Virus record (IMG/VR): IMGVR_UViG_2671181030_000005
Span: 1-12,830 of that record
Length of the DNA stretch: 12,830 nucleotides
Direction: 5' to 3' (one strand)
Source: a virus
Lineage: Duplodnaviria > Heunggongvirae > Uroviricota > Caudoviricetes
This document shows positions 1 to 12,830 of the stretch, one piece after another. The translations under genes and the position numbers were made by a program. The notes under the pieces are model-generated. The model saw only the letters and a list, made by a program, of their open reading frames with translations, searched no databases and was not told where the DNA came from. Numbering within the stretch: the stretch's first letter is position 1; every line of letters starts with the position of its first letter.

Positions 1-933
1 ATGGACAACGACAAAATTGATCAACACAGCGACGAAATTGAAGTTGAGAGCGAAGAAAAAGAGCGTGGCAAAAAAATAGAAATAGATGAAGATCGACTCC
101 CCTCCCGGGCGATGGCAATTCATGAGCATATCCGCCAGGATGGTGAAAAAGAGCTGGAACGCGACGCAATGGCACTACTGTGGTCAGCCATTGCGGCGGG
201 TCTGTCGATGGGCGCTTCATTACTGGCAAAAGGGATATTTCATGTCGAACTGGAAGGTGTGCCGGGCAGCTTCTTGCTGGAGAATCTCGGTTATACCTTT
301 GGTTTTATTATCGTCATTATGGCCCGCCAGCAATTATTTACCGAAAACACCGTAACTGCGGTACTACCCGTCATGCAAAAACCGACAATGAGCAACGTTG
401 GCTTACTTATGCGGTTATGGGGCGTCGTGCTGCTGGGTAATATTCTCGGGACAGGTATTGCGGCGTGGGCATTTGAATATATGCCAATCTTCAATGAAGA
501 AACTCGCGATGCATTTGTCAAAATCGGCATGGATGTGATGAAGAACACCCCCAGCGAGATGTTTGCCAACGCGATCATTTCCGGCTGGCTGATCGCCACT
601 ATGGTATGGATGTTTCCTGCAGCGGGTGCGGCAAAGATTGTGGTGATTATATTGATGACTTGGCTTATTGCCCTGGGTGACACCACTCACATCGTTGTCG
701 GTTCTGTTGAAATCCTCTATCTGGTGTTTAACGGTACGCTGCACTGGAGCGATTTCATCTGGCCCTTCGCACTACCTACTTTAGCGGGGAACATCTGCGG
801 CGGCACCTTTATCTTCGCGTTAATGAGTCATGCACAGATCCGTAACGACATGAGCAACAAGCGCAAAGCAGAAGCACGCCAAAAAGCAGAACGTGCGGAA
901 AACATTAAGAAAAATGATAAAAACCCGGCATAA
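1..933 (+). CDS. yfdC: Formate/nitrite transporter (FNT) family inner-membrane protein YfdC
   Basis: 310-aa ORF filling the whole interval; multiple hydrophobic segments; sequence recalled as E. coli YfdC, the gene that precedes argW in E. coli. Window begins at its ATG. Confidence 0.9.
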   Translation: MDNDKIDQHSDEIEVESEEKERGKKIEIDEDRLPSRAMAIHEHIRQDGEKELERDAMALLWSAIAAGLSMGASLLAKGIFHVELEGVPGSFLLENLGYTFGFIIVIMARQQLFTENTVTAVLPVMQKPTMSNVGLLMRLWGVVLLGNILGTGIAAWAFEYMPIFNEETRDAFVKIGMDVMKNTPSEMFANAIISGWLIATMVWMFPAAGAAKIVVIILMTWLIALGDTTHIVVGSVEILYLVFNGTLHWSDFIWPFALPTLAGNICGGTFIFALMSHAQIRNDMSNKRKAEARQKAERAENIKKNDKNPA

Positions 934-1008: not shown

Positions 1009-1083
1009 GTCCTCTTAGTTAAATGGATATAACGAGCCCCTCCTAAGGGCTAATTGCAGGTTCGATTCCTGCAGGGGACACCA
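1009..1083 (+). tRNA. argW: tRNA-Arg (anticodon CCU), argW, complete with encoded CCA
   Basis: 75-nt sequence GTCCTCTTAGTTAAATGGATATAACGAGCCCCTCCTAAGGGCTAATTGCAGGTTCGATTCCTGCAGGGGACACCA; cloverleaf with anticodon loop CU-CCU-AA and T-arm GGTTCGATTCC; matches recalled E. coli argW. Confidence 0.95.
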
Positions 1084-2536: not shown

Positions 2537-4627
2537 CTACATATTCACGCATGATATATGCTCAATAATCACTGTCATCCGCCCGCTTGCAGCGGTGGTT
2601 CCAGCGATTTTTTTTACAACTAAATTGTTTTCAGCAACTGTGACCACGATAGATCCAACGTTTGTTTGTGTTTTTACTCCAGCGACTGATTCTATATAAT
2701 ATGGCAATGATAACCCGAAGAACCAGTATCCTTCTGTGAATAGCTTTGCTGCATGCTCATCCCTGTTTGAGTTATACATTACAGATATTTTTACTGCCGT
2801 TTTTCCATTTGTTGTCTTTATTGGTATTAAAAGTGTTGTAGATTCATTTTCAGCTACGTCTGCAGTTACTGCATAGATGCGTTGAGATGTATCGGAATTT
2901 ACGTTAGTTAGCGTATCAAACCCTCTGCAATTACTTACTTGACGAAATAAAACATCAAGAAAAGTTGTAACCCCTGGCAATGGGTCAAGATAATACAATG
3001 GTGCGATATTTCCATCGCCAAGATTGAGGTTTTGCACCCGTACTATAGCCTTCACATACGCAGAGGAACCTCTGCTTATTTGAATTACAGCAGTTGGCAC
3101 CGTTCCTGCCATTCCTGACGACTGAATGTTTCTGAAGATAACCTCTTTGAAGAGATATACATTAAAATTTGTGTTTCCTGTATTGCTATACAGAAATCCA
3201 ACATTCTCTATTATGGCATTACATTTTATATTTTCAGCAATGTAACCATCATATGTATTCGGCGAGTTATTATAAAATGATACCAGACGAGAGATAATAT
3301 CTGACGGATCTTCGCAGTTGACGTCAATATTTCGCAAAGAAATACCTCGAAATGTCGGTGCTCCACTGACAAGACCACCTGAAACGATTGACTGTGGGGC
3401 TGCTCCGTCAGCATAGAAGCAACTAAGTCCGTCTAGAGAACCTCCTGCCTGCAAGTCTACTGCTGACTGCCCAGCAGCAACAGCAAAGGCCTGTGTGCGC
3501 CGCTCTACAATATTGCTCACCCGAGAGTTCATTATCTGTGATTTGACTGATCTCTTCTGGCAGTCTTCAAAATACGAATCACTAATATCAAATACTGCTG
3601 ATAAATAGTTAGGGGATGATGCATATATCCCATCCGCATCCTGATATGGTCCAACTCGGAATACTGAAATATTCCTAACATAGCAATATTCAAAGTTTTG
3701 AACCATAAACCCGCGACCAACATTAGAACCACCTGAGCTTGAAATATCATAAGCTGAGGAATCTGACAGCCTAATCTCTTTCCATCTAAACAATGAGCCT
3801 GCCGTAATATATGCAGCAGTTGATAATCCTGTGTCAATTGCTTCCCTAGCGTTTCTTCCAGAATAGCCTGAAATAGATATTTTTGCGTTGTTATCGGATG
3901 AAAGCGCATAGAGTAGCTTTGCAGCATTGTTCTTGCCGTCAATGGCAATATCCTCTATGGAAAGAACGGATGAGCACGTTATTTTTAAAACAAATGGACT
4001 TACTGCTCCAGTATAGATAATAGTTCCATTTCTTATTGTTGTTTTTTTGTTGAAAACAACACTAATCATCTCGCTTGTTTTAATTGTCATTCCAGACAGG
4101 TCGATAACATACCCATCATATCTATTTAGCAAATAGATTAATTTTTCTCCTTCATCTGTCCCATCACCAGTTATTCCTGCCGATGATGGCGTAACATAAT
4201 ATATAGCACTTTGAACTGTTCCACCCTGCTGAAGGGGGATCATATCCGCACCTTTTCCTTTCCCTGTGGATGTAATTTCCTTCCTTAACTGATCAGGGTC
4301 GTATTTCAGCACATTAGGGAAATAAAACTGCTGCGCACCATATGCATCATAAACAGCCATAGAGTGGCCTTGCACAGTTACGAACTTGGCAATCTGTCCG
4401 TTATATACAGGATAACCAGCGGCGTTAATGATGATTGGCTGCGAAACAGGAACGTGAGAACCATCCTCATTCTCCACATAAACCTGAATCTGGTTTTCAG
4501 GATTTACCGGGTCAGTGTCAATTTTACCGATATAAATTTTACCATTGGCAACCGCTTTAAAAGAACGCGCCATAGTGAAGAGTTGCGAAGGCATGCTTAC
4601 CACAACATTTGCGGTGATATCTGACAT
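2537..4627 (-). CDS. P22-like tailspike protein (gene 9 homolog) with conserved N-terminal head-binding domain and divergent receptor-binding domain
   Basis: 696 aa from ATG at 4627 ([46 protein letters not shown]...), closely matching the recalled P22 gp9 N-terminus ([46 protein letters not shown]...); the remainder diverges from P22. GGAG 7 nt upstream of the ATG. The ORF-track N-terminal extension to 4726 has no homology and is rejected. Confidence 0.85.
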
Positions 4628-4747
4628 TTCATTGCTCCAGACGATGATATGATGCAACCATGATGTGATTGCATACCGAAATGGTACTATTGAGTATTTA
4701 TCCAGTAGGTTACGATGCCATTCCACCCAACTGGTGAGGCATCAAGG

Positions 4748-5014
4748 ATGTACAGCAAATACGATGAGGCGCAGTTTCACTTGAGACTTCCGCATGAACT
4801 CCACGCGAAAATTAAGCAGCGTGCGAAGATGAATAACAGATCTCTGAACTCAGAGATAATTGCAGCGATTGAAGAATCGTTGGCTAAACAAAGCTCTGCA
4901 TCCGTTTACATTGATGATGCAGAGCGTATGGCAGAACAACAATCTGATATGGTTAAGAAAATGGTATTTGAAACGCTTAAGACCATGTATAGCAATAATA
5001 AAAAGGAAACATAG
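4748..5014 (+). CDS. mnt: Mnt-like ribbon-helix-helix repressor (P22 immI-type)
   Basis: 88 aa from ATG 4748 (MYSKYDEAQFHLRLPHELHAKIKQRAKMNNRSLNSEIIAAIEESLAK...AERMAEQQSDMVKKMVFETLK), aligning with recalled P22 Mnt (…PHFNFRMPMEVREKLKFRAEANGRSMNSELLQIVQDALSK…AERLADEQSELVKKMVFDTLK). GAGG 8 nt upstream. Divergent from the tailspike gene as in the P22 immI region, but no arc or ant is present. Confidence 0.8.
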   Translation: MYSKYDEAQFHLRLPHELHAKIKQRAKMNNRSLNSEIIAAIEESLAKQSSASVYIDDAERMAEQQSDMVKKMVFETLKTMYSNNKKET

Positions 5015-5084
5015 AAATCTAGTTTCCGGCTAAAATGGCATAGCCTTCATGATATCCTGTGAAAAACTAAGGAGAGTTAACCAT

Positions 5085-5570
5085 ATGAAAAAATCACTGT
5101 TAATTATCCCGCTTCTGCTGGTTGGATGCGCAAAAGTAAGTGACTATCAAGCAAGTTGCGAACAACGCTATCAAAAGCTTAGCGATATGGCTAATTGCCT
5201 TGATGCCAGTGTGAAGAACGACTCACGCATGGCATCAGCACCAACACCTAAGCTGTATGTCCTTGCTGCAAAGATGCTCGGGCAAGGTGTCGATGAAGGC
5301 AAGATAAGTGACGCACAGGCAAGACTTGAGCTTCAGAATCTTTATGTTCAATTACAAAGCCAAGAACAAGCCCAACAAATAGCACAAAGCCAAGCATTCC
5401 AGCAGGCTTTATTGAATTATCAGGCTGTAAACACAATGCAAGCGATCGAGCAAAAAGCGCGCCAGCCTGTTATAACTCAACCTTACCCAACACGCGTTGA
5501 CACATATACAAACTGCAATTCAGGATTTGGAAACACGGTAACATGCAACAGTAGCAGTAACATCAGATAA
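5085..5570 (+). CDS. Predicted lipoprotein with Gln-rich region, unknown function (occupies the sieA-like position between mnt and the ejection-type genes)
   Basis: 161 aa from ATG 5085; signal peptide MKKSLLIIPLLLVGC with lipobox LVGC; AAGGAG 10 nt upstream; Q-rich segment QLQSQEQAQQIAQSQAFQQALLNYQ. No family recognised. Confidence 0.7.
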   Translation: MKKSLLIIPLLLVGCAKVSDYQASCEQRYQKLSDMANCLDASVKNDSRMASAPTPKLYVLAAKMLGQGVDEGKISDAQARLELQNLYVQLQSQEQAQQIAQSQAFQQALLNYQAVNTMQAIEQKARQPVITQPYPTRVDTYTNCNSGFGNTVTCNSSSNIR

Positions 5571-6018
5571 CAATCAGCAAAGGTACCTTTGCAGAGGTGG
5601 CGCGCTGTTCGACTGTTGAGTCTGTCACCGGGTCACCCGCCCATTGAGCAAAGCGATCATCAACGTAACCGCGGCCTTCAGGTCCTGGCGTATATTCACC
5701 ACGCTTTGCCTTCATAACGTTGCCGGGACCGTCGTGATAAGCCTGAAGAGCGTCACGCCAGTTACCAAACTGCTGGTACATCTTTGCCAGATAGCGCGCG
5801 CCAGCGTCAGCTTGATATTCGGGGTTTTGCATTTGCTCATCGGTATAACCCATATCACGCCATGTCCCAGGCATGACCTGAGTCAATCCTACAGCCCCGG
5901 CGGAGCTTACTGCGGCAGGGTTGTAAGAAGACTCCTTGGCACCCAGTGCAGTCATCAACCCTTCTGGCACACCGTAACGTGCGCCAGCCTGCTCTAACAA
6001 ATCACGGTAATTAGCCAT
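5563..6018 (-). CDS. Lytic transglycosylase (SLT domain) protein, no signal peptide
   Basis: 151 aa; SLT catalytic motif region GAKESSYNPAAVSSAGAVGLTQVMPGTW and downstream AYHDGPG; start ATG follows, in the same frame, the TAA stop of the upstream 381-aa ORF. Confidence 0.8.
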   Translation of the reverse strand: MANYRDLLEQAGARYGVPEGLMTALGAKESSYNPAAVSSAGAVGLTQVMPGTWRDMGYTDEQMQNPEYQADAGARYLAKMYQQFGNWRDALQAYHDGPGNVMKAKRGEYTPGPEGRGYVDDRFAQWAGDPVTDSTVEQRATSAKVPLLIVI

Positions 6019-7164
6019 TTACTGCCCCAAAGATGGAAGATATCCGTAGCGATTAATGAAGTCGATTGACAGCTCGGGGTGCTGCTTCAGGTAATCTATA
6101 GAAGCCTGAGGCGCTTCCACTCGCTTGATACCGTTTTGCTGAACGTACTTACCAACCGCCTCATTACGCTTCTGGTTGAGCGTGTTCAGGATGACGCCAG
6201 CGTTGCGACGAAAGGACTCCTCGCTCTGCGAGTTCTGCAGCGAACCAACAGCCTGGTCGAGCTTTTTGCCCTCGGCATCAGAAAGTGCGCCCATGCCTCG
6301 CATGGCCTGAACCGCTGTCAGGTATGCTTGTGATTTAAAGGTATCAAGTCGTGCCTGAGTGTCTGCAGCCTGTGAGCCTGGAACGTTGGGGATTACTCCA
6401 CGTAAGCCTGTAATGCTCTTAAGTGAAGGAGAACTAACGATATCGTTCAGAGTGAACATGCTGGTTGTGAGGGTGTTGATGCCGTCTTTGTAGCCATCAT
6501 TTAGCGCTTGCTGCTTCTGCTGCAACTGCTGGTTGTTGGCTGCTATGCGGCTCTGTATTTCCTGGCGCTTCAGGTCGTTAGTTTCTGCTGATAGCATCCG
6601 GTCAAGGCGCTTATTTTCGTTGTTAATGCGGTTTGTTTCTGCGTCCAGATTAATGCGCTGCTGACCTAAATTCGCCTGGATATCTTGTCCGCGCATTGTG
6701 ATTGCCTGATTCCGAGCGGCGGTTTGCGAATCCAGATCCTGACCGCGCATGGTAACCTGGCGACCCTGCATTTTATCCTGTAGGTCAAAGTATTTTTCGG
6801 GCCCGAGACTGTTCATCCCCAGGTGATCGACAAATTCGACGAACTGCCGCGGGTTCTGTTGGTACATCTGAGCGACGTCATGAGGATTAACGCCAACACG
6901 AGCTAACTCACCGGCGTTGTTTTGCAGCCATGATTGCATTGCTTCTGGAGACGATGACGCAAGGCGTGCGCCAGCCGCTAAGGTGCCGATAGAATTACGC
7001 TGGTCTTCATCAATGAATCCCATGCCTTTACGAACGGATTCAATCTGGTCTGGATATTGAGTAATCTCGTTAGCAACGCGCATGAAACCATCTTCGGTAT
7101 CTGCCACGCGATGCTCCACGACCTCCAGTTGAGGCCTGTAATCAGCTAACTTAACGACGCCCAT
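6019..7164 (-). CDS. Gln/Asn-rich phage structural protein, candidate ejection (DNA-transfer) protein; function uncertain
   Basis: 381-aa ORF, long uninterrupted; low-complexity coiled-coil-like Q/N-rich middle; lies where P22-like phages place ejection genes, upstream of the immI and tailspike region; directly followed in frame by the SLT ORF. Family assignment is positional inference, not motif-proven. Confidence 0.5.
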   Translation of the reverse strand: MGVVKLADYRPQLEVVEHRVADTEDGFMRVANEITQYPDQIESVRKGMGFIDEDQRNSIGTLAAGARLASSSPEAMQSWLQNNAGELARVGVNPHDVAQMYQQNPRQFVEFVDHLGMNSLGPEKYFDLQDKMQGRQVTMRGQDLDSQTAARNQAITMRGQDIQANLGQQRINLDAETNRINNENKRLDRMLSAETNDLKRQEIQSRIAANNQQLQQKQQALNDGYKDGINTLTTSMFTLNDIVSSPSLKSITGLRGVIPNVPGSQAADTQARLDTFKSQAYLTAVQAMRGMGALSDAEGKKLDQAVGSLQNSQSEESFRRNAGVILNTLNQKRNEAVGKYVQQNGIKRVEAPQASIDYLKQHPELSIDFINRYGYLPSLGQ

Positions 7165-7344: not shown

Positions 7345-7641
7345 TCAGAATTGCATATCAATTTGCTCAGAATCCTCGGTGGCAGCCGGGGATTTTTTCT
7401 TTGTGATTCCATCCAATGCATACTTAAAAGCCCTGCTAATCGGACTGATGTCTGATGCCATTCCGAAAGCACACAAGACCGAAGCAATAAATCTCCAGTC
7501 CGTTCTGCTTATCTTCGATTCATGACAGCCAATCATCTTTGCCAGACCGCGCTGGGTAAGCGTTGACAGGTTGATGAGTAAATCAGTTTCAGCGCGATCA
7601 ATTTCTCGCTGTGTTGGCTTGCTATAACTTGCTTGTGTCAT
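7345..7641 (-). CDS. cII: CII-family transcriptional activator (lambda CII-like)
   Basis: 98 aa; C-terminus TKKKSPAATEDSEQIDMQF resembles recalled lambda CII C-terminus (TNKKRPAATERSEQIQMEF); helix-turn-helix-like core ...GLAKMIGCHESKISR...; located immediately downstream of cro on the same strand, as in lambda. Confidence 0.7.
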   Translation of the reverse strand: MTQASYSKPTQREIDRAETDLLINLSTLTQRGLAKMIGCHESKISRTDWRFIASVLCAFGMASDISPISRAFKYALDGITKKKSPAATEDSEQIDMQF

Positions 7642-7725
7642 TTGTTAATTTTCCAATAGTGAATAGTTAGTTGAAAGGTATGCGTGGAAACGCATATGGC
7701 CTTAGTTGGTCAGATATCTTGGGGC

Positions 7726-7740
7726 TCGCTTTGTCAGCGA
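7726..7740 (-). promoter_or_regulatory. nutR-like boxB hairpin (TCGCT-GACAA-AGCGA on the minus strand) between cro and cII
   Basis: 5-bp stem with GACAA pentaloop, the loop I recall for P22-type boxB; a boxA-like CGCTCTTT lies upstream on the same strand (about 7766..7774). Motif-level call. Confidence 0.4.
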
Positions 7741-7778
7741 CGTAGGACGAATGTCCATTGTGAAAAGAGCGGTGTTAC

Positions 7779-7979
7779 TTATGCAGTTGTTTTTTTGTTA
7801 CTTGGGAAGGGCTTTATTTCTTCCGCATAAACGCTTCCATCAGCGTTTATAGTTAAAAAAATCTTTCGGCCTGCATGAATGGCCTTGTTAATCGCGCTTT
7901 GATATACGCCGAGATCTTTAGCCGTCTTGGTTTGCCCAAAGCGTATTGCATAATCTTTCAGGGTTATGCGTTGTTCCAT
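7779..7979 (-). CDS. cro: Cro repressor, lambda type
   Basis: 66 aa [66 protein letters not shown]; differs from recalled lambda Cro at about two positions (M12I, V55I); AAGGAGG 7-8 nt upstream of ATG. Confidence 0.95.
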
Positions 7980-8002
7980 ACAACCTCCTTAGTACAGGCA
8001 AC

Positions 8003-8069
8003 CATTATCACCGCTAGAGGTAAAATAGTCAACACGCACGGTGTTAGAAGTTTATCCCTTGCGGTGATA
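8003..8069. promoter_or_regulatory. Lambda-type right operator region: OR1 (8006..8022), OR2 (8030..8046), OR3 (8053..8069) with divergent PR (toward cro) and PRM (toward cI)
   Basis: Three 17-bp operators: TATCACCGCTAGAGGTA, CAACACGCACGGTGTTA, TATCCCTTGCGGTGATA; PR -35 TTGACT and -10 GATAAT on the minus strand; layout as in lambda. Confidence 0.85.
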
Positions 8070-8076
8070 GATTTAA

Positions 8077-8793
<717 letters not shown>

Positions 8794-10816: not shown

Positions 10817-10834
10817 ATTTGCAGGTTCGATTCC
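10817..10834 (+). repeat. Partial direct repeat of the argW T-arm region (16 identical bp, TTGCAGGTTCGATTCC)
   Basis: Matches argW positions 1054..1069 exactly; flanks diverge on both sides. Confidence 0.6.
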
Positions 10835-10853: not shown

Positions 10854-11054
10854 ATGCAACACGAACTACAGCCTGATTCACTGGTTGATTTGAAATTCAT
10901 CATGGCCGATACTGGCTTCGGTAAAACCTTCATCTATGATCGGATTAAGTCCGGAGACCTTCCAAAAGCCAAAGTTATCCACGGGCGAGCAAGATGGTTA
11001 TATCGTGACCATTGTGAATTCAAAAATAAGCTCTTAAGCCGCGCCAATGGGTAA
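10854..11054 (+). CDS. AlpA-family small DNA-binding protein (excisionase / recombination directionality factor candidate)
   Basis: 66 aa MQHELQPDSLVDLKFIMADTGFGKTFIYDRIKSGDLPKAKVIHGRARWLYRDHCEF...; matches the AlpA/Xis-type HTH pattern; GGAG 9 nt upstream; located at the element end opposite the integrase. Confidence 0.75.
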   Translation: MQHELQPDSLVDLKFIMADTGFGKTFIYDRIKSGDLPKAKVIHGRARWLYRDHCEFKNKLLSRANG

Positions 11055-11122: not shown

Positions 11123-11140
11123 GATGTCTGCAGGGGACAC
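11123..11140 (+). repeat. Partial direct repeat of the argW 3' end (CTGCAGGGGACAC); candidate attR core of the element
   Basis: 13 identical bp matching argW 1068..1080, with GAT two bases upstream also matching; sequence beyond differs from that following the intact tRNA. Confidence 0.6.
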
Positions 11141-11582: not shown

Positions 11583-12830
11583 CTATATTGCTGAAGGTAC
11601 AGGCGTTTCCATAACTATTTGCTCGCGTTTTTTACTCAGGAAGAAAATGCCAAATAGCAACATCAGGCAGACAATACCCGAAATTGCGAAGAAAACTGTC
11701 TGGTAGCCTGCGTGGTCAAAGAGTATCCCAGTCGGCGTTGAAAGCAGCACAATCCCAAGCGAACTGGCAATTTGAAAACCAATCAGAAAGATCGTCGACG
11801 ACAGGCGCTTATCAAAGTTTGCCACGCTGTATTTGAAGACGGATATGACACAAAGTGGAACCTCAATGGCATGTAACAGCTTCACTAATGAAATAATCCA
11901 GGGGTTAACGAACAGCGCGCAGGAAAGGATACGCAACGCCATAATCACAACACCGATAAGTAATGCATTTTTTGGCCCTACCCGATTCACAAAGAAAGGA
12001 ATAATCGCCATGCACAGCGCTTCGAGTACCACCTGGAATGAGTTGAGATAACCATACAGGCGCGTTCCTACATCGTGTGATTCGAATAAACCTGCATAAA
12101 AGACAGGAAAAAGTTGTTGATCAAAAATGTTATAGAAAGACCACGTCCCCACAATAAATATGACGAAAACCCAGAAGTTTCGATCCTTGAAAACTGCGAT
12201 AAAATCCTCTTTTTTTACCCCTCCCGCATCCGCCGCTACGCACTGGTGATCCTTATCTTTAAAACACATGTTGATCATCATAAATACAGCGCCAAATAGC
12301 GAGACCAACCAGAAGTTGATATGGGGACTGATACTAAAAAATATGCCGGCAAAGAACGCGCCAATAGCATAGCCAAAAGATCCCCAGGCGCGCGCTGTTC
12401 CATATTCGAAATGAAAATTTCGCGCCATTTTTTCGGTGAAGCTGTCAAGCAAACCGCATCCCGCCAGATACCCCAGGCCAAAAAAGAGCGCCCCCAGAAT
12501 TAGACCTACAGAAAAATTGCTTTGCAGTAACGGTTCATAAACGTAAATCATAAACGGTCCGGTCAAGACCAGGATGAAACTCATACACCAGATGAGCGGT
12601 TTCTTCAGACCGAGTTTATCCTGAACGATGCCGTAGAACATCATAAATAGAATGCTGGTAAACTGGTTGACCGAATAAAGTGTACCTAATTCCGTCCCTG
12701 TCAACCCTAGATGTCCTTTCAGCCAAATAGCGTATAACGACCACCACAGCGACCAGGAAATAAAAAAGAGAAATGAGTAACTGGATGCAAAACGATAGTA
12801 CGCATTTCTGAATGGAATATTCAGTGCCAT
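11583..12830 (-). CDS. cscB: Sucrose:H+ symporter CscB (LacY-family MFS permease)
   Basis: 415-aa ORF whose ATG is the last three bases of the window; MALNIPFRNAYYRFASSYSFLFFISWSLWWSLYAIWLKGHLG... recalled as CscB of the chromosomal csc sucrose regulon (E. coli W / EC3132 type); 12-TM-like hydrophobic profile. Confidence 0.9.
   Translation of the reverse strand: MALNIPFRNAYYRFASSYSFLFFISWSLWWSLYAIWLKGHLGLTGTELGTLYSVNQFTSILFMMFYGIVQDKLGLKKPLIWCMSFILVLTGPFMIYVYEPLLQSNFSVGLILGALFFGLGYLAGCGLLDSFTEKMARNFHFEYGTARAWGSFGYAIGAFFAGIFFSISPHINFWLVSLFGAVFMMINMCFKDKDHQCVAADAGGVKKEDFIAVFKDRNFWVFVIFIVGTWSFYNIFDQQLFPVFYAGLFESHDVGTRLYGYLNSFQVVLEALCMAIIPFFVNRVGPKNALLIGVVIMALRILSCALFVNPWIISLVKLLHAIEVPLCVISVFKYSVANFDKRLSSTIFLIGFQIASSLGIVLLSTPTGILFDHAGYQTVFFAISGIVCLMLLFGIFFLSKKREQIVMETPVPSAI

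Follow-up and report, generated by a model that had tools for sequence, protein, structure and literature searches.

An orphan mnt gene and a conserved phrog_6067 lipoprotein gene between the gene 16 and tailspike homologues of a decayed P22-like prophage

Organization of the locus

The window, that is, the whole 12,830-nucleotide stretch of DNA analyzed here (IMG/VR record IMGVR_UViG_2671181030_000005, class Caudoviricetes), is a P22-like (Lederbergvirus) prophage at argW that has decayed and whose "ant moron" is reduced to two genes on the anti-late strand. These two genes, mnt and a lipoprotein gene, are flanked by the tailspike gene on one side and a truncated gene 16 homologue on the other, where P22 carries sieA (Table 1). 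Read along the minus strand, the order in the window is gp20′, gp16′, lipoprotein (leftward), mnt (leftward) and tailspike (rightward); the annotated P22 record gives 16 (rightward), sieA, orf59a and mnt (all leftward), and then arc, ant and 9 (all rightward). A previous reading of the letters alone (hereafter, the sequence-only reading) had placed the lipoprotein gene in a sieA-like position, and comparison of the P22 record with the window and orthologous loci confirms this for both the 16–9 slot and the anti-late strand. The identity and anatomy of the mnt–lipoprotein locus can be regarded as very likely correct.

The prophage is a deletion remnant, in which gp16 retains no more than 151 N-terminal amino acids, comprising only the lytic transglycosylase domain (RefSeq name in an identical genome, "lytic transglycosylase domain-containing protein"), and gp20 is joined to the N-terminus of an O-like replication protein (O′::′gp20 fusion). 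At the deletion joint, Gally-type homology stops at 5597 and gp16 SLT-type homology starts at 5583. The exact junction is found in only 1 of 5,426 complete E. coli genomes. Neither the remnant status nor the rarity of the junction was visible to the sequence-only reading. Regarding the gene boundaries, a mechanical tailspike start at GTG 4726 was rejected in favor of the ATG at 4633, and a lipoprotein start at 5049 in favor of the ATG at 5085. A longer mnt frame beginning at 4715 is unlikely, as GAGG at 4736–4739 lies 8 nt before the ATG at 4748 and RefSeq has the 88-aa form.

Table 1. Features in and around the mnt–lipoprotein locus (window coordinates)
Feature	Position	Strand	Remarks
Tailspike gene (P22 gene 9 homologue)	2537..4633	-	Pfam Head_binding 5e-67, residues 3-115; N-terminus like P22-like tailspikes
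Divergent control region tailspike/mnt, 114 bp	4634..4747		Aligned with Sf101, Gally, VSe13, E. coli prophages and P22-type loci
Imperfect 23-bp palindrome ATGCAACCATGATGTGATTGCAT	4652..4674		Abuts candidate operator; 19 nt upstream of tailspike ATG
Candidate Mnt operator ATACC-GAAAT-GGTAC, ATACCGAAATGGTAC	4673..4687		Position homologous to P22 Omnt
Pmnt-like promoter remnant	4690..4716	+	-35 TTGAGT (4690-4695), -10 TACGAT (4711-4716); homology to P22 Pmnt
mnt, 88-aa ribbon-helix-helix repressor with Mnt tetramerisation domain	4748..5014	+	Pfam Arc and Repressor_Mnt; phrog_795
mnt–lipoprotein spacer, 70 bp	5015..5084	+	Holds lipoprotein Shine-Dalgarno AGGAG 5070-5074
Lipoprotein gene, 161 aa	5085..5570	+	phrog_6067; lipobox L-V-G-C, Cys15 at 5127-5129
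Palindrome GCAAAGGTACCTTTGC right after lipoprotein stop codon	5577..5592		Terminator-like on minus strand; overlaps deletion joint 5583-5597
Truncated gene-16-type ejection protein	5563..6018	-	Pfam SLT 1.6e-26; phrog_21143 positions 1-145 of 576

The orphan Mnt repressor

Mnt of the window is a genuine full-length member of the Mnt family encoded by an intact open reading frame, as the sequence-only reading had recognized. The N-terminal region (residues 7–49) matches the ribbon-helix-helix DNA-binding family Arc (PF03869, 8.4e-15), and the C-terminal region (residues 57–81) matches the coiled-coil tetramerisation family Repressor_Mnt (PF11423, 4e-12). These domains are shared with P22 Mnt, the sequence of which was confirmed from the P22 record, although the identity between the two proteins is 45% and the recognition strand is QFHLR in the window instead of HFNFR in P22. 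The stepwise change HFNFR to QFNLR to QFHLR goes along with operator base changes. The protein also matches phrog_795 (4.6e-36), a family mislabeled as "partition protein ATPase." Comparison with orthologues gave pN/pS values of 0.08–0.34.

The presence of mnt without arc or ant, claimed previously, also stands: the gap between the tailspike gene and mnt is only 114 bp, and tblastn searches with P22 and O104 Arc and Ant revealed no match in the window. The hallmark of immI, ant with arc and sar under the control of Mnt, is therefore missing from the window. Neither ant nor arc is linked to this Mnt type in the best 80 IMG/VR loci; this Mnt lineage was devoid of an antirepressor in every locus examined. 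The sequence-only reading treated the orphan state as a puzzle, but the arrangement is ordinary. The 16–9 region, named "ant moron," is highly variable, and versions with mnt only and an extra gene have been described for ST64T, ST104, Para1 and L (PMC2629481, PMC8022706). The window shares with the described "ant moron"/immI regions (Villafane et al. 2008, PMC2629481; phage L, PMC8022706) the 16–9 location, the opposite-strand genes and the mosaic variability. It differs from them in that the extra gene encodes the widely conserved phrog_6067 lipoprotein, and in that its Mnt is of a distinct specificity type (QFHLR), orphan in all sampled loci.

The control region between mnt and the tailspike gene

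By alignment, the divergent control region is what is left of the immI Pant/Pmnt region. The candidate operator falls in register with TAGGTCCACCGTGGACCTA of P22 and AGACCACTGTGGTCT of Gally, and TA-TTGAG follows in all of them, so that, as in P22, the operator lies 2 nt from the TTGAG of the −35 element and mnt diverges from the tailspike-side genes. Among the best 80 loci of this Mnt type, all lacking ant and arc, 71 carry the operator motif upstream of mnt, and in one locus (L011) the 6-bp arms are perfect (CATACC-N5-GGTATG). In the window, the symmetry is imperfect, with four of the five arm positions complementary, and the operator thus differs from P22 Omnt in being only partly symmetric as well as in its bases. 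As the motif occurs once in the window against 0.7 occurrences expected by chance, the evidence for the operator is positional homology, not statistics.

The adjacent Pmnt-like remnant has a short, poor spacer of 15 nt and falls below the threshold of the consensus scanner; Pmnt of P22 is annotated in the P22 record as TTGAGA-17-TATCAT. The consensus promoter scan gave another promoter-like site, CTGACA-16-GATGAT at 4621–4648, and found no tailspike-directed promoter. The alignment with P22-type loci indicates that the −35 and −10 elements of P22 Pant are not conserved in the window. A putative operator homologous to Omnt thus survives, while Pant itself has decayed. The proposal that Mnt acts on the divergent region at 4628–4747 is accordingly upheld in part: the Omnt-homologous site within this region makes such an action reasonable, whereas no good tailspike-directed promoter is present and Pant is unconserved.

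The palindrome that abuts the candidate operator was also considered as a Mnt operator and was rejected in favor of the site at 4673–4687. It does not align with Omnt of P22 or Gally, and, although present in the displayed loci of this Mnt type, it is missing from loci of the VSe13 type, whose Mnt has an identical recognition strand. As an RNA fold, it is not significant (z = −1.6).

In P22, Mnt represses Pant, and Ant inactivates heterologous repressors (summarized in PMC2629481 and PMC8022706). One explanation for the orphan gene is that Mnt is mainly a defense acting in trans, which would keep Pant silent in P22-like phages that enter the cell or share it and have the same operator specificity, and would protect the resident repressor against foreign antirepressor, the lipoprotein being an unrelated passenger. 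The intact frame under purifying selection, the lack of an ant in cis to be controlled and the separability of the lipoprotein gene from mnt (see below) are in line with this explanation. However, no ant-bearing phage with an ATACC-N5-GGTAY operator was seen in the best 80 loci, leaving such a defense with no known target, and autoregulation suffices to explain an operator conserved in cis. This explanation is improbable.

Sequence, structure and selection of the lipoprotein

The lipoprotein matches phrog_6067 over its entire profile (1.7e-110, positions 1–161 of 161), a family annotated as "unknown function." Scans against Pfam, NCBIfam and PADLOC assigned it to no family and gave only a sub-threshold match to GspK (18.9 bits, the cut-off being 130); its distant relatives have no Pfam family either. 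No paper on the lipoprotein was found in literature searched by protein accession, locus tag and PHROG number. Residues 1–14 form the signal peptide (MKKSLLIIPLLLVG followed by C), with Cys15 as the predicted lipid-modified residue. The canonical lipobox and the Gln-rich segment described by the sequence-only reading are both present; Gln accounts for 15 of the 45 residues (33%) over positions 84–128. Among 32 diverse homologues, C15, C25, C38, C144 and C154 are invariant and Gly14 and Ala16 nearly so, and Cys15 is also nearly invariant in a superfamily alignment of 101 sequences. In Enterobacterales, lipoproteins without Asp at position +2 are sorted to the outer membrane. The lipoprotein has Ala16 at this position, which predicts an outer-membrane anchor.

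Structure prediction, which had been suggested as a check on the lipoprotein, yielded a confident AlphaFold model (pLDDT 87.8) from the 101-sequence superfamily alignment, an earlier model from 32 close sequences having been poor (pLDDT 63). The fold obtained is a generic one, consisting in the mature protein of a helical bundle (residues 18–70), a long helix of 50 residues (76–125) whose distal half is rich in Gln, and a C-terminal disulfide β-hairpin (139–159). Inspection by eye found a hydrophobic segment only in the signal peptide, and the mature part is modeled as a soluble helical bundle.

The lipoprotein gene is under strong purifying selection (dN/dS 0.04–0.13), and its N-domain is highly conserved across genera. 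These values bear on the idea that neither mnt nor the lipoprotein gene is functional and that the two are relics of an immI region decaying along with its prophage. Such an origin would suit the heavy deletion of the prophage, including the truncated gp16 and the O′::′gp20 fusion, and a "remnant of a degrading immI region" was raised, among other possibilities, for the mnt-like gene of phage L (PMC8022706). The selection analysis has, however, already largely refuted the idea: both frames are intact and selected, the lipobox and cysteines are invariant across genera, the lipoprotein orthologue is expressed (see below), and Gally, vB_EcoP-720R6 and VSe13, which are plaque-forming or inducible, carry both genes. 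It is very hard to maintain.

Distribution of the lipoprotein gene

At least 80% of window positions 4600–5620, that is, most of the mnt–lipoprotein stretch, is present in 106 of 5,426 complete E. coli genomes (approximately 2%), and the carriers include prophages of STEC, O104:H4 and AIEC LF82. The lipoprotein gene is found in at least eight enterobacterial genera. In prophages of E. coli, Salmonella, Serratia, Yersinia, Morganella, Providencia, Klebsiella and Pectobacterium, it directly adjoins gene 16 in a convergent orientation on the anti-late strand. A narrow-alignment scan of a genome collection for lipoprotein relatives yielded six loci. The sequence-only reading had proposed that mnt and the lipoprotein gene form a module, but their association is not obligate. 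The lipoprotein gene is also found beside a complete ant–arc–mnt set, is elsewhere separated from mnt by inserted genes, and is found without any mnt in Yersinia, Morganella and Serratia, with promoter-like sequences upstream of it in the latter two. The conserved lipoprotein cassette starts at approximately 5063–5068 in other contexts. These patterns suggest that the lipoprotein gene is an independent, horizontally shuffled cassette that is always found beside the 3′ end of gene 16.

The distribution also bears on a role in the lytic cycle or virion economy of the phage, in which the lipoprotein would, for example, keep progeny phages from delivering their DNA to cells that are lysing or already infected, or would tune the read-through of the late operon into the tailspike gene. 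The gene does lie within the late operon beside the ejection-protein genes, and the ant moron has been proposed to influence late-operon read-through into the tailspike gene (PMC2629481). Against such a role, the gene lies on the anti-late strand, transcription of its orthologue in the uninduced lysogen exceeds the prophage background, many functional P22-like phages (among them Sf101, IME10, P22 and L) lack it, and it is intact in remnants unable to make virions, such as the window and locus L005. This role is quite improbable.

SieA occupies the same slot in P22-like phages, of which only 22 of 66, about a third, carry sieA (PMC10883804). No SieA was detected in approximately 95 lipoprotein loci, either by tblastn with P22 SieA or by motif, and a search for the RYPxEA core motif over all loci found it in P22 only. 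This fits the lipoprotein and SieA as alternative occupants of one slot. The lipoprotein resembles SieA (types A–C, PMC10883804) in its slot by the 3′ end of gene 16, its strand orientation and its expression from the prophage. SieA is, by contrast, a polytopic inner-membrane protein with the motif FxRYPxEAxxFNK, whereas the lipoprotein has neither this motif nor sequence similarity to SieA, and possesses a cleavable lipoprotein signal peptide, a soluble helical body and a predicted outer-membrane anchor.

Expression in the LF82 lysogen

The orthologue in prophage Gally of strain LF82, GALLYPH_13, is 97.5% identical to the window lipoprotein. Transcript data of the LF82 lysogen (PMC9928086 supplements) give it a value of 70 in LB against a prophage median of 15.6 (4.5-fold) and show mnt at background level; even without induction, the lysogen thus transcribes the orthologue at more than the background level of the prophage. 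Because 4.5-fold lies under the 5-fold cut-off of that study, the gene was not classed there as a moron (PMC9928086). In macrophages, GALLYPH_13 is induced approximately 6-fold (log2FC 2.55; PMC9928086 supplements). Deletion of mnt in LF82 produced no macrophage-survival phenotype (PMC9928086).

This induction is among the arguments for the lipoprotein as a host-fitness or envelope-homeostasis moron, captured from an old periplasmic lipoprotein family and serving stress resistance, serum resistance, intracellular survival or envelope architecture. The distant superfamily members (25–40% identity) are chromosomal lipoproteins of diverse, environmental Proteobacteria, located near housekeeping genes (uvrC/UDG/EarP, hom–thrC, aroA and hrcA), which points to a general envelope role. 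A factor engaged in an arms race would not be expected to show such strong purifying selection or an N-domain so conserved between genera, and other occupants of the slot are exported as well, namely the Gally14 lipoprotein and a secreted 104-aa protein in O104. However, all five neighboring genes, tailspike included, are induced in macrophages (PMC9928086), so that the induction is not specific to the lipoprotein. In addition, the close homologues (at least 48% identity) whose context was examined are all located in the 16–9 slot of P22-like prophages and none in the core genome, and the situation that would have told against a phage role in the sequence-only reading, homologues only outside phages with a housekeeping function, is not what is found. 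A host-fitness role is possible but doubtful.

Proposed role in superinfection exclusion

From its position and cell location, superinfection exclusion by the lipoprotein is plausible. Mnt most likely binds the Omnt-homologous site abutting the weak Pmnt-like promoter and would thereby autoregulate a short leftward transcript. This transcript may continue into the lipoprotein gene, as the spacer between the two genes is 70 bp and the scans, including the consensus promoter scan, detected no terminator-like or promoter-like site in it. The product would present to the periplasm a disulfide-stabilized helical bundle, a helix of approximately 75 Å (estimated from its 50 residues) and the C-terminal hairpin. 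As a lysogenic-conversion envelope factor, it could hinder DNA delivery by superinfecting P22-like podophages at an outer-membrane or periplasmic step, in a manner analogous to, not homologous with, the inner-membrane SieA. With only position, predicted location and the expression of the orthologue in the lysogen behind it, this function is a tentative assignment, less likely right than wrong, and the PADLOC scan gave no match to support it. When identity and anatomy are combined with the exclusion role, the explanation as a whole, taken as a compromise over its parts, has somewhat less than an even chance of being right.

Small envelope lipoproteins, expressed from prophages or early in infection, that exclude phages by acting on the receptor or DNA delivery of the incoming phage include Llp of T5, Cor of phi80, N15 and HK022, and Ltp of Streptococcus phage TP-J34. 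No sequence or fold relationship between these proteins and the window lipoprotein was detected, and the proposed likeness is one of functional analogy only. Their targets (FhuA and the tape-measure protein) are siphophage ones, whereas ejection proteins are what P22-like podophages employ. Bor of lambda, also a prophage lipoprotein, has a role in host interaction. The window lipoprotein is like Bor and other such morons in its expression in the lysogen, its location in or beside the late genes and a possible role in host fitness, but it shares no homology with them.

In a bolder version, which is rather unlikely, the lipoprotein would represent a new class of outer-membrane-anchored exclusion factors against short-tailed phages. 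The helix and hairpin would block assembly of the trans-envelope conduit of gp7, gp20 and gp16 from the outer-membrane side, the lipoprotein would replace SieA in many P22-like prophages without sieA, and the orphaned Mnt would have been repurposed as a lysogen-phase regulator.

Implications

The layout of the locus is common and already described; the part not found discussed in the literature covered is the phrog_6067 lipoprotein as a conserved occupant of the slot. It is one of the commonest alternative occupants where sieA is missing, and it now has a confident structural model without a known relative. The orphan Mnt lineage with its putative operator kept offers a clean case of an immunity repressor after the loss of its target. 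If the exclusion role is false, the lipoprotein would still be a well-defined, tractable prophage envelope protein. If it is true, the lipoprotein would show that DNA delivery by podophages can be blocked from the outer-membrane side, which would bear on host range in phage therapy.

Gene content of the window

The sequence-only reading placed an mnt gene lacking arc and ant beside the tailspike gene, followed by a lipoprotein gene where P22 carries sieA, and this gene content is borne out (Table). The mnt product matches both the ribbon-helix-helix and the Mnt tetramerisation domain and is 45% identical to P22 Mnt. No tblastn match to Arc or Ant was obtained in the window, and the divergent gap between the tailspike gene and mnt is too short for either gene. 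The downstream product has a canonical lipobox and a Gln-rich segment (15 Gln among the 45 residues at 84-128), and in the annotated P22 record sieA lies at the same place, between mnt and gene 16, and points the same way. The start codons first given are replaced by 4748 for mnt and 5085 for the lipoprotein gene. A perfect 10-bp inverted repeat (GCTCTGCATC / GATGCAGAGC) lies within the mnt coding sequence at 4893-4902 and 4916-4925. PHROGs-derived annotation (phrog_795) tags Mnt homologues, among them those of Sf101 and P22 (mnt in NC_002371), as "partition protein ATPase", which is a propagated mis-annotation.

Table. Features of the prophage remnant and its flanks
Feature	Position	Strand	Remarks
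yfdC-like transporter gene	1-933		left flank; translation read by eye and RefSeq annotation of equivalent locus
tRNA-Arg(CCT), taken as argW	1009-1083		left flank
Tailspike gene start	4633	-	114-bp divergent gap to mnt
Pmnt-like -35 (TTGAGT)	4690-4695	+	candidate; homology to P22 Pmnt
Pmnt-like -10 (TACGAT)	4711-4716	+	candidate; homology to P22 Pmnt
mnt, 88 aa	4748-5014	+	ribbon-helix-helix and Mnt tetramerisation domains
Lipoprotein gene, 161 aa	5085-5570	+	AGGAG in front; LVGC lipobox
Cut-down gene-16-type protein	5563-6018	-	N-terminal 151-aa lytic-transglycosylase domain only, of ~576 aa; protein-family matches
Chimeric ORF	6019-7164	-	O-like replication protein start fused to gene-20 ejection protein; protein-family matches
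cscB-like permease gene	11583-12830		right flank; translation read by eye and RefSeq annotation of equivalent locus

The flanks enclose a P22-like (Lederbergvirus) prophage whose immunity region is of the lambda/HK97 type: 7345-8793 (cII-cro-cI) is 97.3% identical to phage HK97. This joining of HK97-like immunity to P22-like virion genes exemplifies lambdoid mosaicism in a prophage of Lederbergvirus type. Only a remnant of the prophage is left. The chimeric ORF matches lambda-O-like replication initiators over residues 2-35 and P22 gp20 (positions 98-435) over residues 34-375, marking a deletion joint near 7059 at which everything from the replication genes to mid gene 20 was lost. A second joint, directly past the lipoprotein stop codon, overlaps the palindrome GCAAAGGTACCTTTGC; homologies from both sides share 15 bp (5583-5597), which is read as a probable microhomology-mediated deletion. 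Among 5,426 complete E. coli genomes, this exact junction is present in strain EC2641 alone, at 100% identity. The 3' part of the argW tRNA (1054-1081) recurs twice near the far prophage end, at 10819-10834 (16/16 matches) and 11123-11140 (16/18), bracketing a small ORF that resembles xis (10854-11054); both copies may be att-like sites, left perhaps by successive integrations.

A candidate Mnt operator and its regulator

Mnt had been suggested to act on the region 4628-4747, and a counterpart of the P22 Mnt operator, Omnt, was found there. Upstream regions were grouped by Mnt recognition strand and then aligned. In P22 (HFNFR), the operator TAGGTCCACCGTGGACCTA is followed by the -35 region TTGAGAAT; the corresponding elements are AGAGACCACTGTGGTCTTA and TTGAGGAT in the LF82 prophage Gally (QFNLR), and GCATACCGAAATGGTACTA and TTGAGTAT in the window (QFHLR). 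The homologous operators are in register across the three Mnt types, and one relative, L011, has perfect operator arms (CATACC-N5-GGTATG). Since the P22 record annotates TTGAGA as the -35 of Pmnt, this alignment identifies 4673-4687 as an Omnt homologue, a candidate operator adjoining a Pmnt-like -35. The operator motif alone is not statistically rare, and the case rests on positional homology together with covariation with the recognition strand. The Pmnt-like -10 is weak because its spacer is 15 nt. The hexamers of P22 Pant (TTGACA ... TATATT), on the opposite strand, are not kept, their counterpart in the window being TAAATA with no recognisable -35, which argues that Pant has decayed. A promoter scan gave no tailspike-directed promoter. 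A 23-bp imperfect palindrome (ATGCAACCATGATGTGATTGCAT, 4652-4674), 19 nt upstream of the tailspike start, adjoins the candidate operator; it is present in the displayed loci of the window's Mnt type and absent from VSe13-type relatives.

The best 80 IMG/VR loci with the window's Mnt type all lack ant and arc; the lipoprotein gene is present in 43 of them, about 36 carry just mnt, and the operator motif persists in 71. With a pN/pS of 0.08-0.34, Mnt evolves under purifying selection; it is a stably orphaned repressor, predicted to be still functional. Its simplest role would be to autoregulate its own short transcript, which in the window's arrangement probably runs on into the lipoprotein gene, given a 70-bp spacer in which neither a terminator nor a promoter signal was detected. 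Deletion of mnt in Gally left macrophage survival unchanged (PMC9928086).

Variability of the slot between genes 16 and 9

Of the 5,426 complete E. coli genomes, 435 match at least part of 4600-5620, and 106 of these cover 80% or more of this query and so contain most of the stretch from mnt to the lipoprotein gene. At argW, strain 00_3230 carries an intact P22-like prophage in which the order is tailspike, mnt, lipoprotein and full-length gene 16. In the sequenced phages Gally, vB_EcoP-720R6 and VSe13, a small gene on the opposite strand separates mnt from the lipoprotein gene, and Sf101 and IME10 have the same mnt without the lipoprotein. In a census of ~95 lipoprotein-bearing loci, tailspike-mnt-lipoprotein-gp16 was found in 38 loci plus 4 truncated ones; an orf59a-like gene (10 loci) or the Gally14 gene, itself encoding a lipoprotein (9 loci), lay between mnt and the lipoprotein gene; and about 16 loci, such as that of O104:H4, combined the lipoprotein with a complete ant-arc-mnt set. 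Several, including loci of Yersinia ruckeri, Morganella morganii and Serratia marcescens, had no mnt, and further variants occur in Providencia, Klebsiella aerogenes and Pectobacterium. In all cases, the gene convergent with the gene 16 3' end is the lipoprotein gene. Given this constant place whatever the mnt context, the lipoprotein gene is an independent cassette of the "ant moron" (the variable region with mnt, arc and ant) and no part of a fixed Mnt module, so that the proposal of a single mnt-lipoprotein module is not upheld. Nor is an orphan mnt special: the moron was reported in ten types among sixteen genomes (PMC2629481), mnt-only morons are on record for ST64T, ST104, Para1 and L (PMC2629481, PMC8022706), and in this hypervariable, already described region the orphan condition is both known and common.

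Other occupants of the slot are exported too. Gally14 (4643-5062 of the Gally locus, L001) has the lipobox LSGC, and a 104-aa protein of O104:H4 (5662-5976 of L006) has a signal peptide; no Pfam family was found for either. The slot has the look of a hotspot for accessory genes directed to the envelope. In a Pectobacterium prophage (L104, 4006-5474), four close-spaced same-strand genes encode an mnt-like protein (82 aa), proteins of 148 and 91 aa and the lipoprotein; this run looks like an mnt-led operon and would speak for mnt being transcribed, in some lineages, together with accessory genes that follow it.

The lipoprotein family and its possible function

The lipoprotein matches phrog_6067, annotated "function unknown", and no family was found for it in Pfam, NCBIfam or PADLOC. 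Its close homologues form 94 clusters (90% identity, E <= 0.001), and all organism-named ones are from Enterobacterales. Their alignment shows five invariant cysteines: Cys15, to which the lipid would be attached, and Cys25, Cys38, Cys144 and Cys154. Conservation is high across the N-domain (16-90), the Gln-rich segment varies, and a TTNCxxxGNxxxCxSY motif is retained at the C-terminus. By the established +2 rule for lipoprotein sorting, the Ala at +2 would direct the protein to the outer membrane through the Lol pathway. The AlphaFold model (pLDDT 87.8, from a 101-sequence superfamily alignment) comprises three helices (18-28, 32-45 and 53-70), a further helix of 50 residues (76-125) and a beta-hairpin (139-159). 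A full profile search yielded 263 representatives at 50% clustering. Most of the representatives that were looked at are lipoproteins of 125-140 aa sharing these cysteines, and none of ten scanned members has a Pfam family; they constitute an unnamed superfamily of small lipoproteins. Among those with readable context, distant relatives (25-40% identity) are single chromosomal genes in environmental Proteobacteria (L099, L100/L101, L091, L092), neighboured by the housekeeping genes uvrC/UDG/EarP, hom-thrC, aroA or hrcA; one distant relative lies near a phage terminase gene.

SieA spans the inner membrane several times, carries a conserved motif and blocks the gp16/gp20 conduit; only 22 of 66 P22-like phages encode it (PMC10883804). 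The lipoprotein has slot and orientation in common with SieA but nothing more: it lacks the SieA motif and, from its sequence and model, is predicted not to be polytopic. It is a reasonable, if doubtful, candidate for a superinfection-exclusion factor. This reading is supported by its position, its predicted periplasmic location, apparent mutual exclusivity with sieA, which was found in none of the ~95 lipoprotein-bearing loci, and expression in the lysogen: RNA-seq of the LF82 Gally lysogen gave 70 normalised units for its orthologue (97.5% identity) against a prophage median of 15.6 and 13 for mnt, with an increase of log2FC 2.55 in macrophages (PMC9928086 supplements). Against this reading speak the strong purifying selection on the gene (dN/dS 0.04-0.13 within E. 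coli and Salmonella; cross-genus N-domain pN 0.06-0.07, with synonymous sites saturated), the chromosomal distant relatives and the lack of a link to known defence proteins; a general envelope or host-fitness role comes close behind exclusion. Gene content, lipobox and slot stand from the earlier description, and a special orphan Mnt in a fixed module does not; what is added here is the operator homology at 4673-4687, the cross-genus conservation of the slot and a confident structural model of the lipoprotein family.
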